This document shows positions 1 through 53,847 of a stretch of 53,847 bases of DNA, in pieces. The notes under the pieces are model-generated. The model searched no databases and was not told where the DNA came from. It worked only from the letters and a program-made list of their open reading frames with translations. Source of the stretch: a virus; IMG/VR virus record IMGVR_UViG_3300045988_101358, positions 1 to 53,847 of that record; one strand, given 5' to 3'. Positions within the stretch are counted from its first letter, which is position 1. Each line of letters starts with the position of its first letter. The position numbers and the translations under genes were made by a program.

Positions 1-141
1 ACCTGATTGCTCAAATGTCTACGATGATCGATGATAATACTGCCGGACAGTTCCCTGGTCTGTTCGAGACATTCGAAGAAGGCAATAAATATCCGGCCAA
101 GACCATCGTTCGCTACAAGACCGGTCTGTATCGTGTTATTC
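1..141. repeat. Terminal direct repeat identical to 53707-53847. Assembly overlap of a circular or terminally redundant genome; unit length 53,706 bp.
   Basis: Both ends read acctgattgctcaaatgtctacgatg...ggtctgtatcgtgttattc. Compared base by base. Confidence 0.95.
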
Positions 142-401
142 AGGACGTTCCTGAGAACACGGATGGAACCCCGGACTCTCTGGACGGAACATATTTCGAA
201 CGTATCGAACGTCCGGATCTCATGGATCCAGATGAGAATATGAACAATAACGACGTATATTCCTGGCTCTCTCCGGCCAAGATCGATCAGACCTATTCCG
301 AAGGCGATATCGTTTTGTGGAAGGGCTCTAAGTGGCGTTCTGACCGGAACTATAACGCCTTCGAACCTGGTGTTCAGGGTTGGACCGAATATACCGATTG
401 A
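1..401 (+). CDS. 3' portion of the wrap-around tail-fibre-like gene. The C-terminus has CBM5/12-like aromatic repeats.
   Basis: Same frame as 53361 (53706 is divisible by 3). YSEGDIVLWKGSKWRSDRNYNAFEPGVQGWTEY and YPAKTIVRYKTGLYRV resemble carbohydrate-binding CBM5/12 motifs. Lies in the fibre block. Confidence 0.6.
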   Translation, partial: LIAQMSTMIDDNTAGQFPGLFETFEEGNKYPAKTIVRYKTGLYRVIQDVPENTDGTPDSLDGTYFERIERPDLMDPDENMNNNDVYSWLSPAKIDQTYSEGDIVLWKGSKWRSDRNYNAFEPGVQGWTEYTD

Positions 402-421
402 TATTTTAGTAAGGAGTCACC

Positions 422-604
422 ATGGCCCGTATCAACTCATATCCCAAAGCATCATCCATGAATAATGATGATGTTCTTATCATTGATGGAGCCACTGCTG
501 GTACTCGTACGGTGACTCCTCTCACATTGGTATCGAAAGTGGCTGAACCTATTACCAACGACCAGATCGATCAGATGTTTGAGAATCTTAAAGCTAATCA
601 GTAA
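422..604 (+). CDS. Small tail-module protein (60 aa), function unknown.
   Basis: taaggagtcacc-ATG. Tightly packed between fibre genes. Confidence 0.55.
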   Translation: MARINSYPKASSMNNDDVLIIDGATAGTRTVTPLTLVSKVAEPITNDQIDQMFENLKANQ

Positions 605-619
605 ACTAAGGAGTTTCCT

Positions 620-1060
620 ATGGTTGATTTTCTTGGCAGGGGGGGGGTCTCCCACCTAATCACTAAGATGCTCGACACCGTATATCCGGTGAATAGCATT
701 TATATTTCTCTTGATTCTACCTCCCCGGCCTCTCTGTATGGAGGTACGTGGGAGCGCTTCGGTAAAGGCAAGACGCTGGTTGGCGTAGACGAAGCCGATA
801 CCGATTTCGAAACTGCCGGTCTCACCGGTGGGGAGAAGAAACATACGTTGACAAGTGCGGAGATTCCAGTCATTTCTGGAAGATTCGTACAGCAATCAAG
901 CCATGACTATGGCCTGAGTCTTGTTGTTCGTGGACTTGTTAATGGCGCGGACACGCGATATATGGGAATCGGTCCTATTGTACCTGATGGTACTCACGAC
1001 CAAGGACATAACAACATTCAGCCGTATGTGTCAGTCTATATATGGAAGAGGGTCAGCTGA
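620..1060 (+). CDS. Tail-collar-like fibre/baseplate protein, paralogue 1 (current orientation of switch 1).
   Basis: RBS aaggag. MVDFLGRGGVSHLITKMLDTVYPVNSIYISLDSTSPASLYGGTWERFGKGKTLVGV...GLTGGEKKHTLT matches the Gram-positive phage tail-collar/baseplate pattern. C-terminus is NNIQPYVSVYIWKRVS. Confidence 0.75.
   Translation: MVDFLGRGGVSHLITKMLDTVYPVNSIYISLDSTSPASLYGGTWERFGKGKTLVGVDEADTDFETAGLTGGEKKHTLTSAEIPVISGRFVQQSSHDYGLSLVVRGLVNGADTRYMGIGPIVPDGTHDQGHNNIQPYVSVYIWKRVS
639..647 (+). repeat. Poly-G tract (G9) at codons 7-10 of paralogue 1; currently in frame.
   Basis: ggc agg ggg ggg gtc, counted directly. Confidence 0.9.
818..852. repeat. Left arm of the perfect 35-bp inverted repeat of switch 1, inside the paralogue 1 coding sequence.
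   Basis: ggtctcaccggtggggagaagaaacatacgttgac equals the reverse complement of 1267-1301. Confidence 0.95.
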
Positions 1061-1266
1061 CTCGTTTCCAGATATACACACTCACGAATGGTTGAAGATT
1101 GTTATGAGGCTGCCCACCGCCTGCGGCGTTAATATGGCGTGTATCATCCCACCAAGCCTTGTTATAAGATGGTGAAATAAACCACAGAACATTATATCTG
1201 GTGTCTTGAGTTCCATCCTGATACCCAACATGTAATCCATGATTGTGTTTGGGCATTTCGGCTATA
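1053..1266 (-). other. Silent (start-less) alternative C-terminal cassette for paralogue 1.
   Basis: Minus-strand frame is open through the repeat: ...EYHGLTGGEKKHTLT|IAEMPKHNHGLHVGYQDG...GGGQPHNNLQPFVSVYIWKRVS*. No ATG or RBS of its own. Exactly in phase with the repeat (1+3n nt). Carries the canonical collar motif LT-IAEMPKHNHG. Confidence 0.8.
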
Positions 1267-1301
1267 GTCAACGTATGTTTCTTCTCCCCACCGGTGAGAC
1301 C
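1267..1301. repeat. Right arm of the 35-bp inverted repeat of switch 1.
   Basis: gtcaacgtatgtttcttctccccaccggtgagacc is the reverse complement of 818-852. Confidence 0.95.
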
Positions 1302-1341
1302 ATGATATTCCGAAAGGATCCTATTATGGTATCATTTCTCG

Positions 1342-1854
1342 ATGGGGGGTACTTCTCATCTGATTTCTAAGCTTCTCGACACTATATACCCCGTCGGAAG
1401 CATTTATATGTCCGTGAATGACACCAGTCCTGCTGCGATATTTGGCGGTACGTGGGAGCGCTTCGCCAATGGTCGAACGTTGATGGGTGTTAATTCTGCG
1501 GATAAGGATTTTAGTACCCCTGCTCACACCGGAGGTGCTAAGGAAGTTACACATGCGCATCACACTCCGTTCGGTTCAGAACAGGGTGCCAACCAATCAT
1601 GGAGCGCCATGTGGGATCATCGTGGCTCGACCAAGGTTTCCGCCTATGTGGATAACAAAGTCAAGATTAAGAACGGATATACGAACGAACTATATTTCGA
1701 AACGTATGCCGTCAAATCGCCATATCATTTCTATGTTATGGATGGCGAAACCAGTGATAGCAATGCTACTGCAACGATCGGTGCGACATATTCCACTACC
1801 ATGCCAATTCTTCCACCCTATATCACCGTTTATATTTGGCAGCGTCTCAGCTAA
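1342..1854 (+). CDS. Tail-collar-like fibre protein, paralogue 2. Its natural start (ATG 1326, good RBS) is out of frame because of a G6 tract.
   Basis: cgaaaggatcctatt-ATG(1326) encodes MVSFLDGG, then stops at 1368. The long frame starts at ATG 1342 inside the tract: MGGTSHLISKLLDTIYPVGSIYMSVNDTSPAAIFGGTWERF...YITVYIWQRLS. Homologous to paralogues 1 and 3. Confidence 0.7.
   Translation: MGGTSHLISKLLDTIYPVGSIYMSVNDTSPAAIFGGTWERFANGRTLMGVNSADKDFSTPAHTGGAKEVTHAHHTPFGSEQGANQSWSAMWDHRGSTKVSAYVDNKVKIKNGYTNELYFETYAVKSPYHFYVMDGETSDSNATATIGATYSTTMPILPPYITVYIWQRLS
1344..1349 (+). repeat. Poly-G tract (G6) at the position homologous to the G9 tract of paralogue 1. G5 or G8 would join ATG 1326 to the long frame.
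   Basis: gat gggggg tact, counted directly. Confidence 0.9.
1522..1552. repeat. Left arm of the perfect 31-bp inverted repeat of switch 2, inside the paralogue 2 coding sequence.
   Basis: gctcacaccggaggtgctaaggaagttacac equals the reverse complement of 2053-2083. Encodes AHTGGAKEVT. Confidence 0.95.
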
Positions 1855-2052
1855 CTCTTTGCCAGATATAAACAATATAGTACGGCGGGAGAATGCGAAT
1901 CGGATCGCCGCCTCCGGTATCCTTAGTCGTGGTAACGTTTACTCCGGTAGAATCTGGCGCTGAGGCTTCTGCCTTAGGGCCATATCCTGCCTGATGCCCT
2001 CCGGACCACACAGACATACTGTGAGAGTGCGGAGGAAGCTGAGAAACGGTTA
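1847..2052 (-). other. Silent (start-less) alternative C-terminal cassette for paralogue 2.
   Basis: My translation of the reverse complement, in phase with the repeat (2+3n nt): (EVT)LTVSQLPPHSHSMSVWSGGHQAGYGPKAEASAPDSTGVNVTTTKDTGGGDPIRILPPYYIVYIWQRVS*. It has no internal stop and no start codon, so it is absent from the ORF track. Confidence 0.8.
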
Positions 2053-2083
2053 GTGTAACTTCCTTAGCACCTCCGGTGTGAGC
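2053..2083. repeat. Right arm of the 31-bp inverted repeat of switch 2.
   Basis: gtgtaacttccttagcacctccggtgtgagc is the reverse complement of 1522-1552. Confidence 0.95.
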
Positions 2084-2102
2084 TTATCAGAAGGACATTC
2101 TT

Positions 2103-2564
2103 ATGGTAAATTTTCTCGACAATGCCGGAACTCAACATTTCATCACAAAACTGCTCGATACGGTATATCCGGTTAGTAGCATTTATATCACCACTAGCGA
2201 TACCTCTCCTGCGAGTTTCCTTGGAGGCTCCTGGGAGAGGTATGCTAAAGGTCGTACATTAATTGGTGTGAATGAAAAGGACAAGGATTTTATAGATGCG
2301 ACTCATTCCGGTGGTAGCAAGACTCAGATCGTAGATGGTGGGGCCTTCAGGGCTCATATTGCCTTTAATTCTGCTGGACGTTTCTGGTTCCAACAGGATG
2401 AATCGACAGAGCCCTGGAATAGCACATCATCTGTGGATAATGTTAGATATGACTGGAACACTGGGACATGGGGAACTAAAACAGGCATCCGCATATCCAA
2501 CAAACAGACCCTTAATAATCTCCCTCCATTCCAAACAGTCTATATTTGGCGAAGGATCGCGTAA
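2103..2564 (+). CDS. Tail-collar-like fibre protein, paralogue 3. No poly-G tract and no inverted cassette.
   Basis: RBS gaagga. MVNFLDNAGTQHFITKLLDTVYPVSSIYITTSDTSPASFLGGSWERY...PPFQTVYIWRRIA. Confidence 0.75.
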   Translation: MVNFLDNAGTQHFITKLLDTVYPVSSIYITTSDTSPASFLGGSWERYAKGRTLIGVNEKDKDFIDATHSGGSKTQIVDGGAFRAHIAFNSAGRFWFQQDESTEPWNSTSSVDNVRYDWNTGTWGTKTGIRISNKQTLNNLPPFQTVYIWRRIA

Positions 2565-2580
2565 CGAAAGACAGGAAATA

Positions 2581-2931
2581 GTGTCACCTCAGATGTCAAT
2601 GATGGTTACAATATTATGTTCCGTATTAGGCTCATCTGGCATCTGGGGATGCCTTCAGTATTTGTTGAACAGGCATAATTCCGATCGTGATCTCGTCGTG
2701 GGTCTCGCCCATGTACGAATCACGGAATTGGCTCTGAAATACCTCGATCGTGGGTATATCATGAAATCGGAGTATGATGAGTTATACCACTACCTCTTCG
2801 AACCATATTGTCGTGCAGGTGGCAATGGAACATGCGCCGAGCTCATGGAACGGGTGACCAATGAACTCAAGATCTATGATTCACCCTCTCAAATCCCAAA
2901 GGAGTTACTCGAACATGACGAATCCGAATGA
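2581..2931 (+). CDS. Membrane-anchored protein upstream of the holin, function unknown.
   Basis: GTG 2581 lies 8 nt after gaaagac (ATG 2593 is an alternative start). N-terminal hydrophobic MMVTILCSVLGSSGIWGCLQYLL. The long ORF-track N-terminus (2335) overlaps paralogue 3 and is rejected. Confidence 0.55.
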   Translation: MSPQMSMMVTILCSVLGSSGIWGCLQYLLNRHNSDRDLVVGLAHVRITELALKYLDRGYIMKSEYDELYHYLFEPYCRAGGNGTCAELMERVTNELKIYDSPSQIPKELLEHDESE

Positions 2932-3364
2932 TATTCCGACACCGGTTCTGGACGCACAGACCGATAAGGTGAATGACTCTGCGCAGGAAACCGTTTCTGC
3001 ATCGACTGTCGCCCCTTCCGATATGGTCCAGAGTCTGCTGTCTTCAAAGCAGTACAACATTCTCAAGTGGGTGGTCATTATCGTGCTGCCCGCGATCACT
3101 ACCGTTTACGGCACGTTCTCGAATATCTGGGGATGGCCGTACGGTGATCAGATCGTGGCATCGTTCTCCGCTATTACGTTGTTCCTGGGTATCATCATTG
3201 GCGTGTCCACGAGCTCTTATAATATGTCTTCGGCAGGTCCATCCGGTACTCTGGTAGTGGACCGTACTGATGCGAATACCCAGACATATTTGGCGTTTAA
3301 CCAAGATCCGAAGACCATTGCTGATGGTAGCCAGATCACCCTCAACGTAAAGCATGTCAAATAG
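2915..3364 (+). CDS. Holin, Dp-1-like family.
   Basis: aaaggag upstream. KQYNILKWVVIIVLPAITTVYGTFSNIWGWPYGDQIVASFSAITLFLGIIIGVSTSSY matches my recollection of the Dp-1 holin pattern (two TM helices). Confidence 0.6.
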   Translation: MTNPNDIPTPVLDAQTDKVNDSAQETVSASTVAPSDMVQSLLSSKQYNILKWVVIIVLPAITTVYGTFSNIWGWPYGDQIVASFSAITLFLGIIIGVSTSSYNMSSAGPSGTLVVDRTDANTQTYLAFNQDPKTIADGSQITLNVKHVK

Positions 3365-3366
3365 TA

Positions 3367-3392
3367 CGCGATATTTACAACTTCCTTAATGG
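3367..3392 (+). promoter_or_regulatory. Copy 1 of the conserved 26-nt intergenic motif CGCGAR-AWWWACAA-N5-TTAATGA.
   Basis: cgcgat atttacaa cttcc ttaatgg. Confidence 0.5.
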
Positions 3393-3419
3393 TACACAAT
3401 CAAACGAAAGGAACACATT

Positions 3420-3812
3420 ATGGGAGAGTCCAACGAAAACGTATTGACGCTGGATGATGTGAAACAGGATCTGTATACCCAGATCAAGGCAATGGATGCT
3501 AGCACTGATGGCTACACCAATGCTGTGAACAACCTCAAGACGGTTGCGGAAATCGAAAAGATTGACCAAGAGACTGATGCCGCAAGGGCGCAGTCCGATA
3601 TGGCTATCGAAGATCATGAGATCGAAGTTGGCCGTAAGGATGAACCTAAGCGTGCTGATGTCTTTGGCGCGATCAAGTCGATCGATCCGAGAATCGTCCA
3701 GACGGTCATCACAGCGGCGACGCAGCTTGTAGCGCTGAGCACTGTTGTAAGGCTGGAAAACGCAGGTCAGATGGTTCACACCAAAGGTATCAATTGGTTA
3801 CCGAGGATCTGA
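3420..3812 (+). CDS. Hypothetical protein (130 aa).
   Basis: cgaaaggaacacatt-ATG. Confidence 0.65.
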   Translation: MGESNENVLTLDDVKQDLYTQIKAMDASTDGYTNAVNNLKTVAEIEKIDQETDAARAQSDMAIEDHEIEVGRKDEPKRADVFGAIKSIDPRIVQTVITAATQLVALSTVVRLENAGQMVHTKGINWLPRI

Positions 3813-3842
3813 TATGATGCACCACTAGGTGTGTTGTAGTAC

Positions 3843-3887
3843 GAAAGGAAAGTCGCGTTATATTCACGTGGCTTTCCTTTTTCGTTT
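3843..3887 (+). terminator. Hairpin plus T-run (intrinsic terminator candidate).
   Basis: gaaaggaaag...ctttcctttt followed by tcgttt. Confidence 0.45.
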
Positions 3888-3913
3888 CGCGAAATTTACA
3901 ATCATCTTAATGA
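3888..3913 (+). promoter_or_regulatory. Copy 2 of the 26-nt motif. Here it coincides with a sigma70-like promoter.
   Basis: cgcgaa atttacaa tcatc ttaatga. TTTACA (3895-3900), 17 nt, then TATAAT (3918-3923). Confidence 0.55.
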
Positions 3914-3942
3914 TAAGTATAATATCTATGAAAGGATATCTG

Positions 3943-4206
3943 ATGGAGTACACTGATAACGACTACACTAGGGACTTCTTGATTTCGACTGGTCTCACTA
4001 TCATCACCATGATCGCATGGCTCGACGACATTGTAAAAGCTCTCTCGAGCAAGCGCTATGTACGCGCTGCTGGAGGGTTCTTTGGAATGCTGGTGAGCTT
4101 TGCGGTATGGGTGGTGTCAATTGCCTCCAGTTATGAACTGAAGAAACTCTGCGAGTCCGAATCAGATGATGAATCTGAGAATACTGAAAAGATTGAAGAG
4201 ATCTAA
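3943..4206 (+). CDS. Small membrane protein (87 aa, two hydrophobic segments, acidic tail).
   Basis: tgaaaggatatctg-ATG. MEYTDNDYTRDFLISTGLTIITMIAW...FFGMLVSFAVWVVSIA. Confidence 0.65.
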   Translation: MEYTDNDYTRDFLISTGLTIITMIAWLDDIVKALSSKRYVRAAGGFFGMLVSFAVWVVSIASSYELKKLCESESDDESENTEKIEEI

Positions 4207-4209
4207 CTG

Positions 4210-4255
4210 AAAAGGATTGATGCATATTTGCATTGATCCTTTTCTTTTATTTTTG
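4210..4255 (+). terminator. Intrinsic terminator candidate.
   Basis: aaaaggattgatgca...tgcattgatcctttt followed by cttttattttt. Confidence 0.6.
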
Positions 4256-4267
4256 AGAGGAGAAGCC

Positions 4268-4624
4268 ATGGAGTATGTTATCCTGACTATGGCGTTATTA
4301 TTGGTTGGATGGATTGCTTCAAGAGCCGATAAATTCAAATTATCGTCTTCTGTCTATATTGCCGAAGAGGATGATGGATGGGTTGTGTATTCCAGGACTT
4401 TGGATTCCATCATATATTTCGTCGATAAATGGAATGATAATCTGGACATGTACGGGGAGGTCACGCTGTATGATTTCCCTGGTGTGTACTGGAATCAGCC
4501 TGTGTATAAAGTAGATATTGACGGACGCCCACCTCATGAGAACGGTTATATTTACAAACTACATCTCCCAGAAGTCAGTGATGACTTGGGATATAGGAGA
4601 GTATTAAAGAAAAATGAAAATTAA
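4268..4624 (+). CDS. Membrane-anchored hypothetical protein (118 aa).
   Basis: gagaggagaagcc-ATG. MEYVILTMALLLVGWIASR. Confidence 0.6.
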   Translation: MEYVILTMALLLVGWIASRADKFKLSSSVYIAEEDDGWVVYSRTLDSIIYFVDKWNDNLDMYGEVTLYDFPGVYWNQPVYKVDIDGRPPHENGYIYKLHLPEVSDDLGYRRVLKKNEN

Positions 4625-5066
4625 TGATAAAATAAAGACGATTATAGAATGGATTTTGATTGGCGTGCTTGGTGTCATATTTAGTGCCACCATGATATTT
4701 AGCGTATGGTGGAGTATTACGCAAGATCCTGATACTATCGATACAACGCCTGTCGAGATTGTCGGAACCTATGAAGTGCGAGATCTTCATGATGAAAGCA
4801 TTCCTGCCAATATCAAAGTCATTGCAATATATCTCAACGATAACCCTAAGGAACGCTTATACTGGTATGGCACTCTGAATATAGATGCATGCAAAGCCGG
4901 AGATTCATGGACCTCTACAGCATACAATACGTCGGATGAAAAACATAAGCAGTTTGAGTGCTATCCCGATACCGGCGAAATTGGTTTTTATATGAAGAAA
5001 GGAGATACCAAAGTATTCGTCAAAGTCGAACCTGAGCATAGTTCGCGAAATTTACAATGTAGTTAA
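4614..5066 (+). CDS. Membrane-anchored hypothetical protein (150 aa).
   Basis: N-terminal TM segment IIEWILIGVLGVIFSATMIFSVWW. Overlaps the previous stop. Confidence 0.6.
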   Translation: MKINDKIKTIIEWILIGVLGVIFSATMIFSVWWSITQDPDTIDTTPVEIVGTYEVRDLHDESIPANIKVIAIYLNDNPKERLYWYGTLNIDACKAGDSWTSTAYNTSDEKHKQFECYPDTGEIGFYMKKGDTKVFVKVEPEHSSRNLQCS

Positions 5067-5069
5067 TGA
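5044..5069 (+). promoter_or_regulatory. Copy 3 of the 26-nt motif.
   Basis: cgcgaa atttacaa tgtag ttaatga. TTTACA, 17 nt, then TATATT (5074-5079). Confidence 0.5.
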
Positions 5070-5176
5070 GAAGTATATTATCTATAGCATTAGTGGATCA
5101 ATGCGCTCGGAAACGAGAGATCGTCGGTTCGAAGCCGACAGTTTATACTTCTATAATTTTTGGCCAAATCAATGGC

Positions 5177-5202
5177 CGCGAAATTTACAACCCACTTAAT
5201 GA
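5177..5202 (+). promoter_or_regulatory. Copy 4 of the 26-nt motif.
   Basis: cgcgaa atttacaa cccac ttaatga. Confidence 0.5.
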
Positions 5203-5222
5203 AATCTATGAAAGGAGACATT

Positions 5223-5447
5223 ATGTGGGAAGATAGACTTGGATGCTGGTTGGCCGGAATCGGAATCGATCCGTACACATTCTTCACGATCGTATTACTC
5301 GTATGCATAACTGCATTATGCGTATTGGCATATTCGATTGGAAAGGATTCTGTACAGAAAGAAACTCCGAAATCTCAGCCTAAACCGGAACCTAAGGTCA
5401 TTGTCTACCCTCCGGATTGCTTCTATGATCAAGAAAAAGACAAGTAA
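5223..5447 (+). CDS. Small membrane protein (74 aa).
   Basis: gaaaggagacatt-ATG. FFTIVLLVCITALCVLAYSI. Confidence 0.65.
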   Translation: MWEDRLGCWLAGIGIDPYTFFTIVLLVCITALCVLAYSIGKDSVQKETPKSQPKPEPKVIVYPPDCFYDQEKDK

Positions 5448-5451
5448 ACAC

Positions 5452-5491
5452 AAGCCGATTGGCGCGAAAAGCGCTGGTCGGCTTATTCTTT
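5452..5491 (+). terminator. Intrinsic terminator.
   Basis: aagccgattggcgc gaaaa gcgctggtcggctt (14-bp stem including G-U pairs) followed by attcttt. Confidence 0.7.
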
Positions 5492-5506
5492 GAAAGGAAT
5501 TATATT

Positions 5507-5692
5507 ATGAACATCACTGGAACTCAAATCACCGTCTGCGCAGCAGTAGTTGGCATAGTAGCTATCATCGGAGGAGCTGTATACACACTAGGATATGATA
5601 ACGGATATAATAGTGGTATAGATGCAGTCGTTCAAATCAATAGACGTGCTATCGCAGAATTCAATGGTGTATTTGCCAAGAAGGAAAGCTGA
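5507..5692 (+). CDS. Small membrane protein (61 aa).
   Basis: tttgaaaggaattatatt-ATG. VCAAVVGIVAIIGGAVYTLG. Confidence 0.65.
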   Translation: MNITGTQITVCAAVVGIVAIIGGAVYTLGYDNGYNSGIDAVVQINRRAIAEFNGVFAKKES

Positions 5693-5700
5693 ATCATATT

Positions 5701-5907
5701 ATGAATAAATATAAGGCGCATGAAATCCGTATGTGGATTCAAAACATCATTATCCCCGCTGTAGGCATTGGCGCATATGTTCTGAGTCAACATCCAGAAC
5801 TCCTTGACAAGTTCAAAAACGTAGTGACATTTGAATCCATTAAGGAAGAAAATGACCCGCTTACGTTAAGCAAGAAATTCAACAACCCATTCAAGAAGGA
5901 GAACTGA
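5701..5907 (+). CDS. Small membrane protein (68 aa).
   Basis: IRMWIQNIIIPAVGIGAYVLS. Tight packing. Confidence 0.55.
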   Translation: MNKYKAHEIRMWIQNIIIPAVGIGAYVLSQHPELLDKFKNVVTFESIKEENDPLTLSKKFNNPFKKEN

Positions 5908-5910
5908 GCA

Positions 5911-45600: not shown

Positions 45601-48600
45601 GCAGATGGGTGAGGCTATTGCTGCGTTCAATGATATTTCCATCGAAGGCGTCGGTAAGGCCATCCTCAGTATTGGGGCACTTCTTACAGAATTCGTTCTG
45701 TTTACGAAGCTCGCCAAGGCTGACAAGATCGGTGAGACTGGTGCTGCTCTTGCTGCCATGGGTGCTGCTGTTCAGCAGTTCGCTCAGGGTGTCGAGATCA
45801 TGGCCAAACTCTCTTGGGAAGAACTTGGCAAGGGTATCGTCGGTGTTGGGGCCGGTCTGACCATCATGGTCTCGGCTATGCGCTTCATGCCGAAGAATAT
45901 GCTCAAAGAATCTGCCGGAATGGTTGTGTTCTCCCTCGCGTTGAACGTGATGGCGAATGCGCTCAAGGAAATTGGCAGTATGAGTGTCGATCAGCTAGCC
46001 AAGGGCATCCTCGCCCTCGGTGGAGCGCTCTCCGTTATGGTCATCGCATTCAAGGCCCTTGATAGCACCAAGGGTTCGACTACCAAACTGGCCGCTTCTA
46101 TGCTGCTGTTTGGTATCTCACTTTCGATGATCGCAGGGCCAATCAAAATGCTGGGCGAAATGCGGACCAAGCAGGTCGCCCAAGGCCTTATCGCTATGGC
46201 TTCCGCCTTCGCCGTAATTAGTGTGGCTGCCAAACTGCTCTCCGGTATGACTGGGCAGATGCTCAAACTTGCTGGAAGCATGGCCGCTATTGGTGCTGCT
46301 ACGATCGTGCTGGGTCTTGGCCTTACGGCTATGATCTATCCTATCGAGAAGCTGGCCGGTCTTGGTTCGGAGGGGCTCGCACAGGGCGTTGGCGGCCTAG
46401 TGGCTGTCATTGGCACTGTCGCGGTACTCATTCAGAGCATCAACATGATGCCTAAGCTGAATCTCAAGGCTGTGGCGTCAATTGCTATAATGGCCGTCGT
46501 TATTGCCGGTGTTGGTGCCATTGTCAAACAGTTGGCTCAGCTTCAGCCGGGCGCGGCGCTTCAGGCTGCTACCGGTTTAAGTGAAGTCCTTCTGTCTGCT
46601 TCAGCATCTCTGGCTATTCTGTCGAAGATCAATGTCAGTGGTGCAGCCGTAGCTGTAGCGGCCCTTGGTGTTCTCATCGCTGGTGTGGCAGCTATCGTTG
46701 CTGCGGCTGGTGCCCTTGCTCAGATCCCTGGAGCCAAATGGCTCATGGGTGAGGGCCAGGCGTTCTTGCTTCAGATTGGCCAGGCTATCGGCGGCTTCTT
46801 CGGAGGCATTGTCGGTGGCGTTGTTGGTGGCGTCATGTCCACCATAGCTGGTCAGCTTCCAGCTATGGGCAGCGCTCTGTCCGATTTCTTCAATAACGCT
46901 AAGCCGTTCTTCGACGGCATGAGCGGAATGGGCACTGGCGTTCTTGATGGTGTGAAGAATTTGGCCCTTGCTATGGTGGCGCTCACAGGCGCAGAACTGT
47001 TGCAGGGGATCACCAACTTCCTTACCGGTGGAGGCTCTAGTATCGGAAAGTTCGGCCAGCAGATTGCCGAACTTGGACCATATCTGAAGAAATTCGGAGA
47101 ATCGGTTAAAGGTCTGGACGCAGGATCGGTTGAAGCTGCGGCTAATGCAGCCAAGGCTCTGGCTGAGTTCGCCAAGAACATTCCGAATGAAGGCGGATGG
47201 GCTGCCAAGATCATGGGTGAGAATGATATTGCCGCTTTTGGCATGAAGCTCATCCCATTCGGCACGTGCATCAAGACGTTCTCTGACGAAGTCAAGGGGC
47301 TTGATGCTGGTGCTGTTGAAGCCGCCGCCAGTGCTGCCAAGGCACTTGCTGCATTCGCCAAGAACATCCCGAATGAAGGCGGATGGGCCGCTAAGATCAT
47401 GGGTGAGAATGATATTGCTGCCTTTGGCAAGAAACTCGTCCCGTTCGGAAAGGCCATTAAGGAATATGCTACAGCAGTAAAGGGTGTCGATGGCTCGGTC
47501 ATCCAATCCTCCGTCAATTCTGCCAAAGCAATTTCTGAGTTCGCCAAGAATATTCCTAATTCTGGTGGACTTGGCACCTTGTTTACCGGTGACAACGATA
47601 TCGCTGTATTTGCTTCGAAGCTTGGACCGTTCGGCACTGCTATGTCGGACTTTGCCAAGAATCTTGGTAAGAATTTCAAGCCGGAAACGGTGACCGCTGC
47701 GGCCAATGCGGCCAAGGCAATCGCTGAATTGGCGAATAATCTTCCGAATAGTGGCGGTCTAAAGCAAGCATTCAGCGGAATCAAAGATCTTGGTGAATTC
47801 GCTGGTAATCTTAAGGGTCTTGGAACAGGCATCAAGGATTACGCGAATTCCGTCAAAGATATCAAGCCAGAAATGGCTGATAGCATTCGCAATTCGGCTA
47901 ATGCCATGTTGGCTATTGCTGATCTTCAGAAAGCCCTTCCGAAGATCGGTGGTTTTGGCGATGTCTTTAGTGGCGTTCAGGACTTCAGCACGTTTAATGC
48001 GCAGTTGAAGCCTCTTGGTGAGGCAATTAAAGACTATGCTGATTCGGTCAAGGACTTCAATCCAGAAACAGTGTCGCTTATCCAAAATTCTATTAATGTT
48101 TTGACGGAATTTGGTAAGCTTCAATCTGCTTTGCCAGCTGTTGGCGGTGTTGCACAGGCATTCAATGGTACTCATGACTTCTCGGTTATGGGTTCTCAGC
48201 TTGGGAGCCTTGGCGATGCTCTGGAAGATTACGTCGGGTCCATAACCACGGCCATGACCCCCGATATAGTGCCGTTGATTCAGTCGTCTATCGACTGCCT
48301 GAACGCATTGGGTGGCCTGCTGAATTCGCTTCCGGCGATTGGTGGTATAGCACAGTTCTTTAACGGTCATCAGGATTTTAGTGTTCTGAGCGGAGGTTTG
48401 ACGGGCCTCGGCAGCGCTATGTATGACTATGTGACATCCATATCCACTGCCATGACCGTGGATACTGTACCAGTCATTCAAGGGTCTATTGCCTGCCTGA
48501 ATGCATTGGGCGGCCTACTGAACAGTCTGCCACCTGTGGGTGCTATTGGTGACTGGTTTACCGGTCATCAGGATTTCAGTGTTCTGAGTAACGGTCTCAG

Positions 48601-50566
48601 TAGTCTAGGCGATGCCATGTATGAGTACGTGACGTCTGTGGCTACTGCTATGACTATGGATACTGTTCCGGTTATTCAGGCATCTATTGCCTGTCTGAAT
48701 GCCTTCGGAGGACTCCTTAACACTCTTCCGAATGTGGGAGGTATCAATAGTTGGTTCCAAGGACAGAAAGACTTCAGCTCTCTGAGCAATGGTCTTCCGT
48801 CTTTGGGCAGTGCTCTGAGCAGTTATGCATCCTCGGTTTCCAGTATTACACCAGATACAGTAACCTCTATCGAGGCTTCGGTCAAGGCCGTCGCGGCCAT
48901 GGCGAAGATTCAAAATAGTCTCTCTGAGACTGGTGGTGTCGCTGGATGGTGGAATGGCGATAAGGGTAATGCCTTTGAAGGTCTCGCCAACCAGATGCAG
49001 TCCGTGTCTAAGGCTGTGGCCGCTTTGGCCAAAACCGGCGTCAATATGGAGAACGTTAATGCTGCCATTAACGCTGTCAATCGAATCAAGTCTATGGCGA
49101 ATAGCCTGGCTGGATTCAATGGGGCTGGCATTCAGGCGTTCAAACAGTCCATGGAGAATGTTGGCGATCTTGGCCTGGGTAAGTTCTCGAAGAGCATATC
49201 CACAGCAGCCACCAGCGCAGTCACATCACTCTCGCAATTCGGAAAGAATATATCGTCTCAGACGAGTTCTGTTCGGTCCGTATTCGACGGTATTAGGTCG
49301 ACCATATCCAGCTCTGCCAGTTCGATGAGTACTGGTATTACCACAGCCATCGCTACAATGACTCTGTCGGCAAATACCGGTGTTTCCTCGTTGCTTATGG
49401 CTATGCAGGCCATGAGCGCTGGTATCACATCATCTATGATGTTTACAGCTACGGCTGTAACGGCAGGATCTATGATGGTGATTGCGGCATTCACTATGAT
49501 GAACGTCGGAATGAGTGCCTCTCTGTCCGGAACATCAGCAATGATATCCGGAGCCATGGCTGGCATTTCAGTGGCGATCATGGCTGGCGCGGCTATGTCC
49601 TCAGGTGCTGTGCAGATGCTCGTCATTACAATATCTTCTGGTATGGCACAAGTGGCATCGGCTATGATATCTGGCGGTGCCGGAGTAAGCGCTGGTGCTG
49701 CGATGATCGGTACTGGCCTGAATCTGGCAGTCATGTCCTCGGCCGTTGCCACGGCCCGAATCAACCAGAATATTCAGAGCGGTCTGCAAAGCGCTGTAGC
49801 ATCTATCAGGAACTATTCTGGTCAGTTCTACAACGCTGGACGCACCGCGATTCAGGGTATGGTTGATGGTATGCGTTCGGGTGGAAGTGGCGCTAGGGGT
49901 GCTGCTCAAAGCGTCATGCGGTCCGCTCTGAACGCCGTACAGGGATATTACGACGACTTCCGTAGTACTGGCGCATATGCTGCCAGTGGCTTTACCCAAG
50001 GCATTAAAGATAACATCAATAATGCGGCCAATGCTGCTGCTCGTATGGCTCATGCTGCGTCGGATGCTGCGAATCAAAACCTCAAGGTGCATTCACCTTC
50101 GAGGGTGTTCGCCAACATCGGTCGATTCGTGTCTCTTGGCTTCGCCAAGGGTGTGGTCGACAATACCAGCGTAGCTACGGATTCCGTGACGAAGATGAGC
50201 ACCTCTGTCATCGATGCTTTCTCCCAGGCTGTTAGCAGTCTTGGAGATGATATTAATGGCAATCTGGATCTCTCACCGACAATCACTCCTGTATTGGATC
50301 TGTCGGCTGTCAGTACGGATGCGTCAAAGCTCACTACCATGCTGGACACGACGTCTCCTCGTATTAGAGCTTCGGTGATTGGTGCACCATCCAAGACTGT
50401 GCGTGGTTCTGACCCAGACAGTAAGAATTCTGACACTTCGAATAGCGGTCCTTCGCTCTCGTTCGTTCAGAACAACTACTCGCCTAAGTCGCTCAGTCGT
50501 ATCGATATTTACCGCGATACTAAGAACCAGTTTAGCCAACTGAAGGGAGTACTGGATAAGATATGA
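42653..50566 (+). CDS. Tape measure protein (2,637 aa).
   Basis: TAATG start. Giant, alpha-helical, repeat-rich ORF between the chaperone region and Dit. Long hydrophobic repeat block plus about 10 tandem 60-aa repeats. Confidence 0.85.
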   Translation: MANIDQRVVTLKLDSSSFQKNANDAIKTIDKLTQSLSKLSSLKVNDTLNKSLSSANFSKLSKSAQDSFAQIDKASKNVKFQSLISNAGAAFSQISVKAGQTTLEGLANSVQAIGDKFNSLRLIAIGTLTNIASQAVSSGAQLAKSFTIEPIIDGFREYELQLNSVQTILANTASKGTNIDQVNAALNELNTYADQTIYNFSEMTRNIGTFTAAGVDLDKSVASIKGIANLAAMSGSSSQQASTAMYQLSQAIAAGKVQLMDWNSVVNAGMGGEAFQNALKRTAQHFGTDVDSMIKKYGSFRESLTKGEWLTTDVLTETLKQLSGAYSEADLVAQGYSEDQAKAIVDMAKTAEDAATKIKTFSQLMDTLKEEVGSGWATTWQILMGNFEEARDSWTAIGNQLQASIGQVSKARNDLLQGWANLGGRKELFDSLTDSLKMVASWITPIKQGFRDVFPPTTAQQLFDITKGLHQFIKDATLTSDQSERLRGVVKTLASGLKYLLDALNGAREGLSKMIGGVKGVINGLLSIFDGVAKLTQSLTGGTNAANAFNQAFSLVGSGLNGVAKILSLVGVGFSTLASAVGNSLGKISGGISNLTAGTGQILSSIVTMFQSVFGALPTLLNSVTNGIGNIFNNAFKNIPFKDILATVNEVIKTIMMWNINGIIQGWKKNAKDAQSIADKIQDIVASFKSIPENITKVLDKTKDSISAFTMSIKANILLKIAAAIAVLAVSLKLLSNIPLDKLASSLGMLAGGMTVFGGMALGFIIALDKLFKGAKRMAKLMVLVQQFGKMAKAMVIFAAAIRILADAMTVFGDMGWGQIFKGVVAIGALSGVLVAVSKLMSGTKGMAKTSMMLIVFAAAIKILGSALKGIGSLDFHIIAKGLLGIGASTAIMIVAMKSLNKGMTKLVKSGIMMLTFAISMKTMASAIKSFEGIDVKTIAKSLGALGATMLILSIYTNKMKSANIKTAATSVASLMLYAEALKQMGEAIAAFNDISIEGVGKAILSIGALLTEFVLFTKLAKADKIGETGAALAAMGAAVQQFAQGVEIMAKLSWEELGKGIVGVGAGLTIMVSAMRFMPKNMLKESAGMVVFSLALNVMANALKEIGSMSVDQLAKGILALGGALSVMVIAFKALDSTKGSTTKLAASMLLFGISLSMIAGPIKMLGEMRTKQVAQGLIAMASAFAVISVAAKLLSGMTGQMLKLAGSMAAIGAATIVLGLGLTAMIYPIEKLAGLGSEGLAQGVGGLVAVIGTVAVLIQSINMMPKLNLKAVASIAIMAVVIAGVGAIVKQLAQLQPGAALQAATGLSEVLLSASASLAILSKINVSGAAVAVAALGVLIAGVAAIVAAAGALAQIPGAKWLMGEGQAFLLQIGQAIGGFFGGIVGGVVGGVMSTIAGQLPAMGSALSDFFNNAKPFFDGMSGMGTGVLDGVKNLALAMVALTGAELLQGITNFLTGGGSSIGKFGQQIAELGPYLKKFGESVKGLDAGSVEAAANAAKALAEFAKNIPNEGGWAAKIMGENDIAAFGMKLIPFGTCIKTFSDEVKGLDAGAVEAAASAAKALAAFAKNIPNEGGWAAKIMGENDIAAFGKKLVPFGKAIKEYATAVKGVDGSVIQSSVNSAKAISEFAKNIPNSGGLGTLFTGDNDIAVFASKLGPFGTAMSDFAKNLGKNFKPETVTAAANAAKAIAELANNLPNSGGLKQAFSGIKDLGEFAGNLKGLGTGIKDYANSVKDIKPEMADSIRNSANAMLAIADLQKALPKIGGFGDVFSGVQDFSTFNAQLKPLGEAIKDYADSVKDFNPETVSLIQNSINVLTEFGKLQSALPAVGGVAQAFNGTHDFSVMGSQLGSLGDALEDYVGSITTAMTPDIVPLIQSSIDCLNALGGLLNSLPAIGGIAQFFNGHQDFSVLSGGLTGLGSAMYDYVTSISTAMTVDTVPVIQGSIACLNALGGLLNSLPPVGAIGDWFTGHQDFSVLSNGLSSLGDAMYEYVTSVATAMTMDTVPVIQASIACLNAFGGLLNTLPNVGGINSWFQGQKDFSSLSNGLPSLGSALSSYASSVSSITPDTVTSIEASVKAVAAMAKIQNSLSETGGVAGWWNGDKGNAFEGLANQMQSVSKAVAALAKTGVNMENVNAAINAVNRIKSMANSLAGFNGAGIQAFKQSMENVGDLGLGKFSKSISTAATSAVTSLSQFGKNISSQTSSVRSVFDGIRSTISSSASSMSTGITTAIATMTLSANTGVSSLLMAMQAMSAGITSSMMFTATAVTAGSMMVIAAFTMMNVGMSASLSGTSAMISGAMAGISVAIMAGAAMSSGAVQMLVITISSGMAQVASAMISGGAGVSAGAAMIGTGLNLAVMSSAVATARINQNIQSGLQSAVASIRNYSGQFYNAGRTAIQGMVDGMRSGGSGARGAAQSVMRSALNAVQGYYDDFRSTGAYAASGFTQGIKDNINNAANAAARMAHAASDAANQNLKVHSPSRVFANIGRFVSLGFAKGVVDNTSVATDSVTKMSTSVIDAFSQAVSSLGDDINGNLDLSPTITPVLDLSAVSTDASKLTTMLDTTSPRIRASVIGAPSKTVRGSDPDSKNSDTSNSGPSLSFVQNNYSPKSLSRIDIYRDTKNQFSQLKGVLDKI
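47080..48990 (+). repeat. About 10 tandem ~180-186-nt (~60-aa) repeats inside the tape measure gene.
   Basis: Units such as VEAAANAAKALAEFAKNIPNEGGWAAKIMGENDIAAFG, VEAAASAAKALAAFAKNIPNEGGWAAKIMGENDIAAFG, ... VPVIQGSIACLNALGGLLNSLPPVGAIGDWFTGHQDFSVLS. The first two units are near-identical at the DNA level (offset 186 nt). Confidence 0.85.
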
Positions 50567-51567
50567 TTAAGTCAGTGACTGTCACTAATCCATCCGGTGA
50601 ATCTCTTGAGATGGTATTGACCGACCCCGTGACCTCAGGATTTAATATCGTTGAGATCACGGGGATCGGCCCCTCTAATGCCTCGATCAACACCACTGAA
50701 TTGGTGACATACGATGGCTCTGTGTATAATTCCGCACGTGCACAGCAGCGTAACATCGTATTCACCTTGCAGTTCTGGGAAGACGACGTCATGGGTCCAA
50801 AATATAGGCCCGAGTCGGAGTGGACCAGGATGTCGATCGAGGATATTCGTCATCAGTCCTATCGATATTTCCCAATCAAGCAGCGAGTGGAACTCTCGTT
50901 CAAGACGGATACCCGTACGCTTGACACCTATGGATATGTCGAGAAGAACGAACCGACGATATTCGCCCAAAAAGAATCCGCACAGATCAGCATCATATGC
51001 CCTGAGGCATATTTTGATCTTGGCGGAGACTACAAGACTCAGACAACAGATTTCTCTTCTGTAGAGGCACTGTTCGAGTTTCCGATTAAAAATACGGGAA
51101 CGATGAAGGGTGAATGGGAGAACAACAATACTAGTGTAGCCTCTGTGAACACCCCACAGACTGAATTCTCCCGTATTGTGCTCACTATGGAAAAAAATCT
51201 GTATTATTCTGGTGATGCCTCGACGGGTATCACCATTCAAATTCGTATTGACGGTACCGTGAGCGGTTTGAGCGTTACCAATGTCAATACGAAGGAAGAG
51301 TTCTCTCTTGATGAGGCGATTCTTGAGAAAATTATTGGCGGAAAGTTGAAGACTGGCGACGTGATTACCATCTGTACGACGCAGGGTCGGAAATCTGCTA
51401 TATTTACACGAAATGGCGTGTCGATGAATATTCTGAATGCTGTCAGTCGTGTATCCACATGGCTACAGATCCGCCCTGGCGATAATGTGTTCTCCTTTGC
51501 AGCTGCTGAGGGTTCATATTACGCTCACGTCATCATTCAAAACCGAACTCTGTTTGAGGGGGTGTAA
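50563..51567 (+). CDS. Distal tail protein (Dit).
   Basis: ATGA overlap with the TMP stop. MIKSVTVTNPSGESLEMVLTDP...FNIVEITGIGP is typical of siphovirus tail component N-termini. Confidence 0.7.
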   Translation: MIKSVTVTNPSGESLEMVLTDPVTSGFNIVEITGIGPSNASINTTELVTYDGSVYNSARAQQRNIVFTLQFWEDDVMGPKYRPESEWTRMSIEDIRHQSYRYFPIKQRVELSFKTDTRTLDTYGYVEKNEPTIFAQKESAQISIICPEAYFDLGGDYKTQTTDFSSVEALFEFPIKNTGTMKGEWENNNTSVASVNTPQTEFSRIVLTMEKNLYYSGDASTGITIQIRIDGTVSGLSVTNVNTKEEFSLDEAILEKIIGGKLKTGDVITICTTQGRKSAIFTRNGVSMNILNAVSRVSTWLQIRPGDNVFSFAAAEGSYYAHVIIQNRTLFEGV

Positions 51568-51568
51568 G

Positions 51569-52699
51569 ATGTCGGACTTGTATATTCTGAACGAAAAATT
51601 CGAGACCCACGCCATCGTGGACACATACAAGTCCTTCATCTGGACGGAACGGTACTACGAGGCCGGAGATTTCGAAATCGTAGTACCGGCCTCCAAACAG
51701 GCTTTGGAGATATTTAAGGACGGGTATTACATCGAATACCCGGATCTTACCAAAGATATTCCTGGTCTTACGCCACAGGTATGCGTCATCGAGAAGCGAG
51801 AGATTGCCACAGATGTTGAGACCGGTAACGTCTTGACCATATCTGGACGAGATGCGCTGTCATATTTGGATCGACGCATTATTTGGAAACAGACTAACAT
51901 CAAGGGTAAATTCATCGATGGCATTAAAGCTCTTTTGGATGCAAATGTCATTAACCCTTCTGATGCCAATCGCAAGATGCCTATTTCCTGGATAGATCCT
52001 AAGACCAAGGCCATGGACAACTATAAGATCGACGCTCAGTATCTTGGCGAGAGCCTCTATGACACTCTGGTGAATCTGGCAAAATCATATCATGTCGGTA
52101 TGGAGATGTATCCTTTGCTGGATGATCGTGAAGGAGTTTTTAACTTTCACCTTTATCAGGGGGCTAATCGTTCATATTCTCAGACCGATAATTCGTATGT
52201 TGTATTCTCTCCGCAGTTCGATAATCTAATTAACGCTAATTGGATCAATGGTTCTGCCGATTGGAAGAACACCACCCTTATTGGTGGAGAACAGGATGAG
52301 AACAAGCATCGTAAATATACCGCCATCGCTGATAACGGATCATATTACTCCGGAATCAACCGTCGCGAGATATTTACAGACGCTTCCGGTGTCTCGTCCA
52401 AAATCGAGGGTACCGACAAGACCATGAGCGATGCCGAATATACTCAGAAACTCGTTCAGGCCGGCAAGGATACCTTCGCCGAACACCAAATCGATACCTC
52501 ATTCGAGGGTAAGGCCGAAACCACTCGCATGTTCCGATACAATCATGATTTCTTCATGGGAGATATTGTGGAGGTCATCGATGCATATGGCAATCAATCC
52601 TCATCCCGAATCACCGAATTCGTACATTCCGAAGATGAGAATGGTACGGATTCATATCCTACATTCACCTCGCTAGATAAGAAGGAGTTGACCAAATGA
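51569..52699 (+). CDS. Tal-like / Sipho_Gp37-like baseplate hub protein.
   Basis: MSDLYILNEKFETHAIVDTYKSFIWTERYYEAGDFEIVVP, and its position after Dit. Confidence 0.6.
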   Translation: MSDLYILNEKFETHAIVDTYKSFIWTERYYEAGDFEIVVPASKQALEIFKDGYYIEYPDLTKDIPGLTPQVCVIEKREIATDVETGNVLTISGRDALSYLDRRIIWKQTNIKGKFIDGIKALLDANVINPSDANRKMPISWIDPKTKAMDNYKIDAQYLGESLYDTLVNLAKSYHVGMEMYPLLDDREGVFNFHLYQGANRSYSQTDNSYVVFSPQFDNLINANWINGSADWKNTTLIGGEQDENKHRKYTAIADNGSYYSGINRREIFTDASGVSSKIEGTDKTMSDAEYTQKLVQAGKDTFAEHQIDTSFEGKAETTRMFRYNHDFFMGDIVEVIDAYGNQSSSRITEFVHSEDENGTDSYPTFTSLDKKELTK

Positions 52700-53328
52700 C
52701 CATTTCATATGGTTTCTATAACTCTCTCAATCATGATAGGGTATATGATGCCGATACGGTTGGCTCCATCTTTGACGGTGTTATCGAAGATGGCGTATAT
52801 TCTCAGATTGGAAAACATTTCAAAGTCTCTGTCAAAAGTGGTATGGATATCACCGTTGGCTCTGGTCGTGCATGGGTCTGGCACACATGGCTCTATAACG
52901 ACCAGAACTATCAAATGCATATTGATGCAGCTTCCGGAGCTTTGGATCGTTGGGATTACGTCTGTATCAAGATTGATAAGTCTCCTGGTGTCCGTGCGTC
53001 CAGTATCGTTGTGGTTAAGGGTACTCCATCATCCACACCTACCGACCCCGTTCCGAAAGACACAAACCTTGTACACTATCTTAAGTTGGCCAAGATTGTC
53101 ATTTCCAAGGGTACGACCACTTTGTCGGATGGACGGATCACCCAGCTTGTTGGCACATCCACCACACCTTTTGTGCAGAGTCCTCTCAAGACGATCGACA
53201 TCGACTATCTGCAAGCGAAGTGGAATGCGGACTATCAGTACATGCTGAACAACATGCATTCTGCTCCGGGTGGTTATATTCCTCTGACCAATGCTCAGAT
53301 TGATGCTATGTTCCCAGCTGGCAAATGA
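52696..53328 (+). CDS. Baseplate/fibre-anchoring structural protein (BppU-like N-terminus).
   Basis: aaggagttgaccaa-ATG. YDADTVGSIFDGVIEDGVYS...VGSGRAWV...RWDYVCIKID. Confidence 0.45.
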   Translation: MTISYGFYNSLNHDRVYDADTVGSIFDGVIEDGVYSQIGKHFKVSVKSGMDITVGSGRAWVWHTWLYNDQNYQMHIDAASGALDRWDYVCIKIDKSPGVRASSIVVVKGTPSSTPTDPVPKDTNLVHYLKLAKIVISKGTTTLSDGRITQLVGTSTTPFVQSPLKTIDIDYLQAKWNADYQYMLNNMHSAPGGYIPLTNAQIDAMFPAGK

Positions 53329-53360
53329 TATTTTCAACAAATCAATGAAAGGAGCGCGCA

Positions 53361-53847
53361 ATGCGCATTGTTGATAAAGATAACAAAGAACTCGATCCGA
53401 ATAAACTGGATCTTCGTAAGGGGCATCTGGTGGATGACAAGATCTTCGTCAAGCACCATGATGCTCAGGAGAAGGTCGAGGAAGTCTCTCATTATGAGAC
53501 CGTTCGTTTCTATTCGAATGGCGGCATGGATGTCGAGAAGGTCATTGACACCCCTGGCCAGGAGGCTAAGGATGCCTATGACGAATATGAGGATGTCCAG
53601 CGCTACATCGAGTACACTCAGAGCGAGTTGGACACTCAGGACAAGAGCACTGCCACTGCCGTCGTGAATGGTAACATGAACGATCAGATCATGACGGCTA
53701 TGCCCTACCTGATTGCTCAAATGTCTACGATGATCGATGATAATACTGCCGGACAGTTCCCTGGTCTGTTCGAGACATTCGAAGAAGGCAATAAATATCC
53801 GGCCAAGACCATCGTTCGCTACAAGACCGGTCTGTATCGTGTTATTC
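53361..53847 (+). CDS. 5' portion of a wrap-around tail-fibre/receptor-binding-like gene. It continues at 1-401 once the overlap is collapsed (248 aa total).
   Basis: ATG 53361 follows tgaaaggagcgcgca. The frame (MRIVDKDNKELDPNKLDLRKGH...) stays open to the window end and is in phase with ORF 15-401. Confidence 0.7.
   Translation, partial: MRIVDKDNKELDPNKLDLRKGHLVDDKIFVKHHDAQEKVEEVSHYETVRFYSNGGMDVEKVIDTPGQEAKDAYDEYEDVQRYIEYTQSELDTQDKSTATAVVNGNMNDQIMTAMPYLIAQMSTMIDDNTAGQFPGLFETFEEGNKYPAKTIVRYKTGLYRVI
53707..53847. repeat. Second copy of the 141-bp terminal overlap (equals 1-141).
   Basis: Identical to bases 1-141. Confidence 0.95.

Follow-up and report, generated by a model that had tools for sequence, protein, structure and literature searches.

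The IMG/VR virus record IMGVR_UViG_3300045988_101358, analysed here over its whole length of 53,847 nucleotides (the window), carries two invertible segments, referred to here as invertons A and B, inside neighbouring tail genes of a lytic phage in which no recombinase is recognisable. In the textbook cases of tail-fibre inversion, recombination is site-specific and the invertase gene is adjacent to the invertible segment. We hold with moderate confidence that the invertons of this phage are real, active switches that work without a dedicated site-specific invertase, and that general recombination or replication machinery inverts them by way of the homology between their arms. The part of the tail protein that is exchanged, its C-terminal part, is presumably receptor-binding. 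The initial annotation of this DNA had offered three options for the inversion, namely a host recombinase, short-homology recombination or an unrecognised phage enzyme; these are still the right set, and the evidence presented here ranks short-homology recombination first.

Invertons in tandem tail-gene paralogues and their orientation in nature

Three tandem paralogues, genes A, B and C, encode small Gp10_C proteins (PF21939, best E 4.8e-27) whose N-terminal half is conserved (Table 1). In genes A and B, perfect inverted repeats of 35 and 31 bp, respectively, form the arms of an inverton. The left arm lies in frame within the plus-strand Gp10_C gene, while the right arm begins a minus-strand frame that has neither promoter nor start codon and that continues the reading frame of the arm. 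Gene A is constant up to GLTGGEKKHTLT and switchable in its C-terminal part, and within its inverton the expressed end and the silent cassette A' are placed tail to tail with overlapping stop codons. Both silent cassettes, A' and B', end in the C-terminal motif of the family, VYIW[KQ]RVS. Judged from these frames, inversion would exchange what lies downstream of the motif x-H/L-T-G-G-x-K-x-x-T, which amounts to the C-terminal half of the protein. The locus therefore bears a hallmark of the serine-invertase type, that is, a constant N-terminal part and a C-terminal part of a tail gene exchanged by inversion. Each arm sequence is present in exactly two copies in the window with three mismatches allowed, and none of 100 shuffles contained any match to either arm. 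The silent cassettes had been described in the initial annotation as the only credible coding capacity of the minus strand. In Pfam, cassette A' is the sole open reading frame (ORF) among 116 on the minus strand to match a real family (Gp10_C, E 7e-6). The inverton architecture was ruled out as a general trait of Gp10_C genes, as a perfect inverted repeat of at least 18 bp was found at none of 80 distant IMG/VR Gp10_C loci.

Genes A and B both contain a G tract at their 5' end, the length of which differs among the assemblies compared (L001, L082-L104). The tract of gene A (639 to 647, plus strand) is G9 and in frame in most assemblies and G8, hence frameshifted, in four (L101-L104). That of gene B (1344-1349) is G6 in the window, G8 in most assemblies and G9 in L084, and its length decides which of two ATGs is in frame. 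The tracts may provide slipped-strand ON/OFF switching on top of the invertons, or they may be homopolymer sequencing errors.

Comparison of public assemblies shows that the invertons flip in nature, recently and recurrently. We queried 5.8 billion proteins with the hypothetical inverted product of A, in which the N-terminus of gene A is joined to cassette A', and obtained full-length matches, including P0001, which is 93% identical and belongs to a cluster of 15, several on contigs of ~53.8 kb; such a hybrid of the gene A N-terminus with A' is represented in public data by P0001 and P0122. Inverton A is flipped exactly between its arms, with colinear flanks, in five assemblies (L084, L089-L092), inverton B is flipped in L085, L101 and L185, and three of the four combinations of A and B orientation were seen. 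The flanks of L101 and L104 are 100% and 99.9% identical, and the 562-bp inverton B has opposite orientations in these two genomes at 100% identity. The relatives L088, L095 and L096 have a third inverton, located in gene C, with arms of 20 bp. L095 and L096 are 100.000% identical over flanks of 4,432 and 1,126 nt, and the 822-bp segment in between is inverted with one mismatch. The two orientations of inverton C give complete alternative proteins of 165 and 207 amino acids (aa).

These differences could also be read as rare, fixed differences between strains, or as chimeras of assembly or polymerase chain reaction formed at the inverted repeats. Inverted repeats can indeed generate chimeric reads, and the flipping evidence comes from comparing assemblies, not from reads in one population. 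We nevertheless consider it very improbable that there are no switches here, since both junctions are inverted consistently in many long independent contigs from different studies, near-isogenic pairs exist (L095/L096 and L101/L104), the three loci vary independently of one another, a complete in-frame protein results from either orientation, and the arms stay perfect repeats across diverged genomes. In addition, the single further contig of this phage found in IMG/VR, the Joint Genome Institute (JGI) contig 3300045988_001088, stops exactly at 1552, the inner end of arm B. Such a break is expected if both orientations coexist in a sample, and its fit to this situation is suggestive only.

Invertons have been lost in some strains. 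One strain has a single mosaic gene, an A-C fusion between ...GLTGG and SK..., and in other strains gene A reads straight into the right flank of inverton A. Natural deletion derivatives include the proteins P0005, P0030, P0031, P0010 and P0017 and the genomes L097-L099. The read-through of gene A into the right flank is of three kinds with differing junctions, and the A-C fusion genes are found in otherwise syntenic genomes. We infer from the protein sequences that the deletion junctions lie at microhomologies of 4-8 bp at the outer base of the arms, one of them at the palindrome CACCGGTG.

A closed phage genome without a recognisable recombinase

Bases 1-141 of the window recur at 53707-53847 with 100% identity, which gives a genome unit of 53,706 bp, and lengths of 53.5-53.9 kb are seen in more than 20 public assemblies of this species that are independent of one another. 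The replicon is therefore complete, and it is circularly closed, as had been stated from the 141-bp overlap. The overlap itself would be the mark of a circular assembly path, 141 being, we assume, the largest default k-mer of MEGAHIT. All credible genes are on the plus strand, where a greedy, deliberately incomplete set of ORFs spans 91% of the genome, and the largest gaps between genes, as read from the gene map, are below 370 nt. No tRNA was found in the genome and no Rfam family matched it; a guide RNA was discarded on the latter result.

The phage is a siphovirus within a lytic actinophage group. Its gene content comprises a large terminase, a portal and a protease-capsid fusion, the tail genes for a 2,644-aa tape measure protein, Dit and Gp37-like proteins, and lysis genes for a GH25-LysM-CW_7 lysin and a Dp-1-type holin. 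Its terminase and major tail protein are 73% and 65% identical, respectively, to those of the lytic Curtobacterium phage Pippin15, and no close relative was found among GenBank phages. The host is likely a gut actinobacterium because the best matches of the lysin are in genomes of Collinsella, Bifidobacterium and Olsenella. Sample names (MUNK22 and similar) suggest that some of the assemblies come from sewage.

The absence of a recognisable recombinase is confirmed. We searched Pfam (E <= 0.01) with all 234 ORFs of at least 60 aa, 118 on the plus strand and 116 on the minus strand, leaving out ORFs below 60 aa, and PHROGs with 20 candidate ORFs. None of the 234 ORFs matched the Resolvase (PF00239), Phage_integrase (PF00589), Recombinase, DDE, IS110 or HUH families. 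Among the 20 candidates there was no integrase and no catalytic family of 'integration and excision', their matches being to helicase, polymerase, HNH, endonuclease and structural families or to unknowns. The initial annotation had found no recombinase on inspection of the ORFs of the closed genome; the profile searches revealed no catalytic domain that would overturn this, and the replicon proved to be whole. A diversity-generating retroelement was likewise set aside, as no reverse-transcriptase family appeared in these Pfam scans. Furthermore, no recombinase was found within 4-10 kb on either side of the invertons in the fetched contexts of relatives and other assemblies, and the 248-aa gene that crosses the window junction has no recombinase family on record in relatives. 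This gene (53361..401), which encodes a CBM_5_12-containing tail protein, spans the arbitrary start of the window, and linear ORF lists show just its second half (15-401) together with a spurious ORF (53368-53667). A frameshift that had been suspected in it at the junction is an artefact of the linear window.

Recombinase-flavoured matches (HTH_7, HTH_23, TnsD, ISL3-HTH and an invertase-family HTH) came from one 988-aa ORF only. We rejected this ORF as a hidden recombinase because the matches cover two helix-turn-helix motifs, that to HTH_7 being confined to aa 945-975, while the protein as a whole is phrog_4291 (1104 bits), a YonO/RdRP-like RNA polymerase. It is 46-48% identical to proteins of ~250 phages, mostly actinophages. 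It was also rejected as the enzyme of the invertons, as its homologues occur in lytic actinophages, of which the one checked, Pippin15, is without invertons.

A phage recombinase of a new family, or one too diverged for Pfam and PHROGs, might still invert the segments. Many ORFs are without known function, one of which was examined by structure, and the invertons are kept across a diverged lineage that extends from the window to L087; both points speak for such an enzyme, which we nevertheless judge improbable. Those ORFs among them that are of recombinase size all have homologues in Pippin15, in which no invertons were found, and the larger ones (251, 235, 311, 309 and 182 aa) are for this reason not inverton-specific. 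The ORFs without known function that are specific to the window are mostly below 150 aa. An enzyme of this kind would also have to act on arms that have no conserved recognition sequence, and no RNA family was detected as a possible guide.

Several ORFs were considered individually as the enzyme and discarded. The 309-aa ORF resembles an N-terminally membrane-anchored acidic protein, the 182-aa ORF has an all-alpha fold (predicted local distance difference test score, pLDDT, 95.9) with no PDB match, and the 235-aa ORF and two paralogous DUF6353 proteins have Pippin15 homologues. The DUF6353 paralogues (phrog_2152) are encoded in the early region at 8034-8789 and 10998-11933, and one Pippin15 homologue is annotated as a membrane protein. 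The 182-aa ORF (12985-13533) lies directly upstream of the primase-polymerase gene and has 340 homologues, being widespread in phage metagenomes; the best, non-significant PDB matches in its structure search were to sigma-factor domain 2.

Arm sequences and the mechanism of inversion

We compared nine arm pairs, consisting of four alleles of A, three of B and two of C. All nine are perfectly complementary within their genome. Between genomes the alleles are 1-9 substitutions apart, the majority of these falling on third codon positions, and each substitution is present in both arms. The closely related genomes L088 and L095 are distinguished by an A/C difference in the B arms and a C/A difference in the C arms, and both of these single substitutions are mirrored in the partner arm. 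The A alleles vary at nine positions, five of which are third codon positions, and the constant part, ACCGG-N-GG-N-G-NN-AAG, corresponds to the first two codon positions of T-G-G-x-K. The C arms encode GRTLVGV and are sited at a different motif; even with flanks included they have no k-mer of 8 or longer in common with the A and B arms, and the A and B arms are, by our count, approximately 65% alike. Beyond coding constraint, no motif is common to the arms of A, B and C, which is to say that they hold no shared site of the kind looked for with known invertase classes. The arms do co-vary while their sequence drifts, as the nine perfect alleles attest and as homology-guided inversion would have it. 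On the outer side, the arms have a sharp limit that stays constant. Homology-driven exchange acts on this locus, as can be told from the mosaic make-up of the paralogues and from the A-C fusions.

A sequence-specific invertase predicts conserved sites and no homogenisation of the arms, because an enzyme of this type cuts and rejoins at a fixed point. The pattern seen in the arms argues against one. Pairing-dependent recombination, by comparison, predicts the pattern observed, with matching arms, drifting sequence, and repair of heteroduplex that keeps the two arms identical. The motif-free arms, their concerted evolution and the unrelated 20-bp arms of C therefore favour short-homology recombination.

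The arms also bear on whether the host could supply a site-specific invertase that acts in trans during infection, as a global invertase like Mpi of Bacteroides would. This would account for a phage that has no recognisable recombinase itself and none at the locus. Global invertases acting in trans are known, and an invertase in trans has been proposed for a Bifidobacterium prophage locus that lacks a recombinase (PMC6109161). The length of the arms, 20-35 bp, is within the range of recombinase sites, and their sharp, constant outer boundary is in keeping with such a site. However, one enzyme would have to accept arms as dissimilar as those of C and of A and B, which have no motif in common, and would have to be indifferent to the wobble positions, which vary freely from strain to strain. 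Cutting and rejoining at a fixed point would not homogenise the arms, yet nine of nine alleles are perfect. The host, moreover, is known only as a similarity of the lysin to those three actinobacterial genera, and the sequence of arm B is absent from the 185,579 species genomes scanned; a JGI metagenome scan with arm A also gave no match. Taken together, we regard a host invertase as unlikely.

If inversion is instead guided by homology, as we favour, the arms would be patches of 20-35 bp of identical coding sequence common to the expressed and the silent cassettes. Inversion would result from the pairing of two patches followed by a crossover, or from a template switch in which a replication fork moves from one patch to the other, and the heteroduplex of each event would, through gene conversion, preserve the identity of the arms. 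This work would fall to general functions of recombination and replication. Those of the phage are the most plausible, and host functions may contribute. The phage candidates are a single-stranded-DNA-binding protein (SSB), a helicase, a Cas4-like exonuclease and a resolvase-like endonuclease, which by their putative roles would make up a T7-like functional set (Table 1). We infer both the acting proteins and the exact pathway. In support of the Cas4-like reading, related actinophages have a neighbouring gene that carries the annotation Cas4 exonuclease. Sequence searches of the PDB gave no match for the SSB, the endonuclease or the Cas4-like ORF. The more far-reaching proposal is that a lytic phage operates a reversible host-range switch at several loci, that no site-specific recombinase takes part, and that its own replication-recombination machinery inverts patches of 20-35 bp at a useful rate; we put this forward tentatively, as possible rather than probable.

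Several points weigh against homology-guided inversion. For recombination of the RecA type, arms of 20-35 bp are short, and the existence of near-isogenic pairs in opposite orientation points to inversion that is more frequent, or more favoured by selection, than is to be expected of spontaneous events. A search of the gene content for a single-strand annealing protein (RecT, Erf, Rad52 or Sak type) brought up no recognisable candidate. In phage Mu, the G segment likewise lies between perfect arms of ~34 bp and is flipped by a site-specific enzyme, and a defined site would be equally compatible with the sharp, constant outer limit of the present arms. Furthermore, the flipping evidence consists throughout of comparisons between assemblies and not of reads within one clonal population.

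Other genome features, related systems and significance

Table 1. Coordinates of the invertons, the genes that carry them and the other genes discussed (window positions, except inverton C)
Feature	Position	Strand	Description
Terminal overlap	1..141	.	copy at 53707-53847, 100% identity
Gene A	620..1060	+	146-aa Gp10_C tail/baseplate protein; PF21939, best E 4.8e-27; P0007 identical
Inverton A left arm	818..852	+	35-bp perfect repeat; 50 nt at 88% when extended
Inverton A interior, invertible	853..1266	.	expressed C-terminus of gene A and silent cassette A'; flipped in L084, L089-L092
Silent cassette A'	1053..1301	-	82 aa, frame open from right arm to stop; ends ...VSVYIWKRVS
Inverton A right arm	1267..1301	-	35 bp
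Gene B	1342..1854	+	170-aa Gp10_C protein; alternative upstream ATG at 1326
Inverton B left arm	1522..1552	+	31-bp perfect repeat
Inverton B interior, invertible	1553..2052	.	flipped in L085, L101, L185
Silent cassette B'	1847..2083	-	78 aa, frame open from right arm to stop; ends ...IVYIWQRVS
Inverton B right arm	2053..2083	-	31 bp
Gene C	2103..2564	+	153-aa Gp10_C paralogue; without cassette in the present genome
Inverton C (relatives)	L088 11630-12451; L095 7522-8343; L096 4413-5234		20-bp arms GTCGCAC[C/A]CTTGTGGGAGTG
SSB, candidate toolkit part	18658..19266	+	PF24083, E 2.5e-34; Pippin15 homologue annotated SSB
SF2-type DNA helicase, candidate toolkit part	22079..23329	+	phrog_62, E 1.3e-47
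Endonuclease, candidate toolkit part	23250..23729	+	phrog_93, E 6.4e-16; weak Holliday-junction-resolvase match phrog_5702, E 0.0038
Cas4/PD-(D/E)XK-like exonuclease, candidate toolkit part	23726..24283	+	DUF2800, E 3.6e-6
YonO/RdRP-like RNA polymerase, 988 aa	24216..27182	+	two helix-turn-helix motifs; phrog_4291, 1104 bits

Other features of the genome were observed alongside the invertons. A promoter-like motif, TCGCGARAWWWACAA-N5-8-TTWAT, has six plus-strand copies (3887, 5043, 7899, 8859, 9658 and 23339) where none is expected by chance, and these copies are probably promoters read by the phage's own 988-aa polymerase. Three genes in the neighbourhood of the terminase share the DUF7211 motif (HFGVKGMKWGVR), at 30625-30664, 33511-33550 and 34194-34233. 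Two of its copies are 98% identical in DNA over 40 nt in genes that otherwise differ, which could reflect short-patch gene conversion or a constraint at the DNA or RNA level. The intergenic region 21779-21898 contains two 44-nt direct repeats, 89% identical and 76 nt apart, before a small ORF at 21835, and a hairpin with a 21-nt stem is present at 20494-20551, within the 240-nt gap 20348-20587. The endolysin gene (40875-41966; GH25, LysM and CW_7) contains 120-nt internal repeats at 41673-41957 and is located within the block of tail genes, with the region of the major tail protein on one side and the tape measure chaperones on the other, and far from the holin gene (2861-3364).

The invertible segments served by Din-family serine invertases in Mu (G/Gin), P1 (C/Cin), e14 (Pin) and p15B (Min) resemble those described here in that the segment lies inside a tail gene between short inverted repeats, the N-terminal part is constant, and the alternative C-termini are arranged tail to tail. 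The arms of Mu G, ~34 bp, are also similar in length to the present arms. In those systems, however, the invertase is encoded beside the segment and acts at conserved 26-bp sites that are interchangeable between phages, and the present phage has neither. It differs further in being lytic, in its probably Gram-positive host, and in carrying two to three independent single-cassette invertons in tandem paralogues. C-termini are likewise exchanged by inversion in the Rci shufflon of R64 and in the Rin shufflon of Bifidobacterium prophages (PMC6109161), the latter affecting a phage receptor-binding protein in what is probably the same host phylum (Actinomycetota). In Rin, a tyrosine invertase is encoded at the flank, and each cassette is preceded by an 11-bp rix site (Mavrich et al. 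2018, PMC6109161). These features of tyrosine-invertase shufflons, a flanking tyrosine recombinase and a site at each cassette (sfx of 19 bp or rix of 11 bp), were not found here.

The initial annotation had called each of its three options unusual for a phage host-range switch. Inversion without a recognisable recombinase does, however, have some precedent (PMC6109161, PMC6620402). In the prophages Bb423phi2/689b-1, approximately 500 bp comprising the 3' end of a tail-region gene and a small gene are inverted without a flanking recombinase; the locus has an 8-bp crossover sequence, and the authors proposed an invertase in trans (PMC6109161). These prophages, which would carry integrases, being temperate, represent a single genome pair with an 8-bp site, whereas the present phage is lytic and shows repeated flips between co-evolving arms of 20-35 bp. 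In pneumococci, the spnIII/cod inversions of hsdS persist without a known site-specific recombinase and in mutants of homologous recombination (De Ste Croix et al. 2019, PMC6620402). As in the present phage, these are programmed-looking inversions between inverted repeats inside coding sequence. The spnIII/cod locus, however, is a bacterial restriction-modification locus with its own recombinase (CreX/PsrA), while the present one is a phage tail gene for which no recombinase is recognised. Recombination in phage T7, carried out with gp2.5 (SSB), gp4 (helicase), gp6 (exonuclease) and gp3 (endonuclease), is RecA-independent and acts on short homologies. The same four functional classes are represented in the present phage, with roles that we read from family names and with no sequence relationship to the T7 proteins, and we know of no report of T7 machinery being used for programmed inversion. 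A systematic survey of gene-altering inversions has listed tail-fibre genes among the targets and found recombinases enriched nearby.

What is new here is a tail-gene inversion switch in a lytic phage without a recognisable recombinase, for which the evidence, drawn from sequence, favours homology-guided inversion. The phage is abundant in sewage and gut metagenomes of several studies, and it combines the classic architecture and flipping with the lack of a recombinase or a conserved site. A host invertase or a new phage enzyme, were either responsible instead, would likewise be unprecedented in a lytic phage. Should homology by itself drive the switch, surveys that demand a nearby invertase would miss a class of phage host-range switches, and the locus would offer a small, genetically simple model for recombinase-independent inversion, as at spnIII. 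The design rule that follows, namely to duplicate, invert and keep approximately 30 bp identical, would be usable for constructing phages whose receptor-binding proteins can be switched. If this is true, phage genomes could evolve such a switch anywhere by duplicating and inverting the end of a gene.

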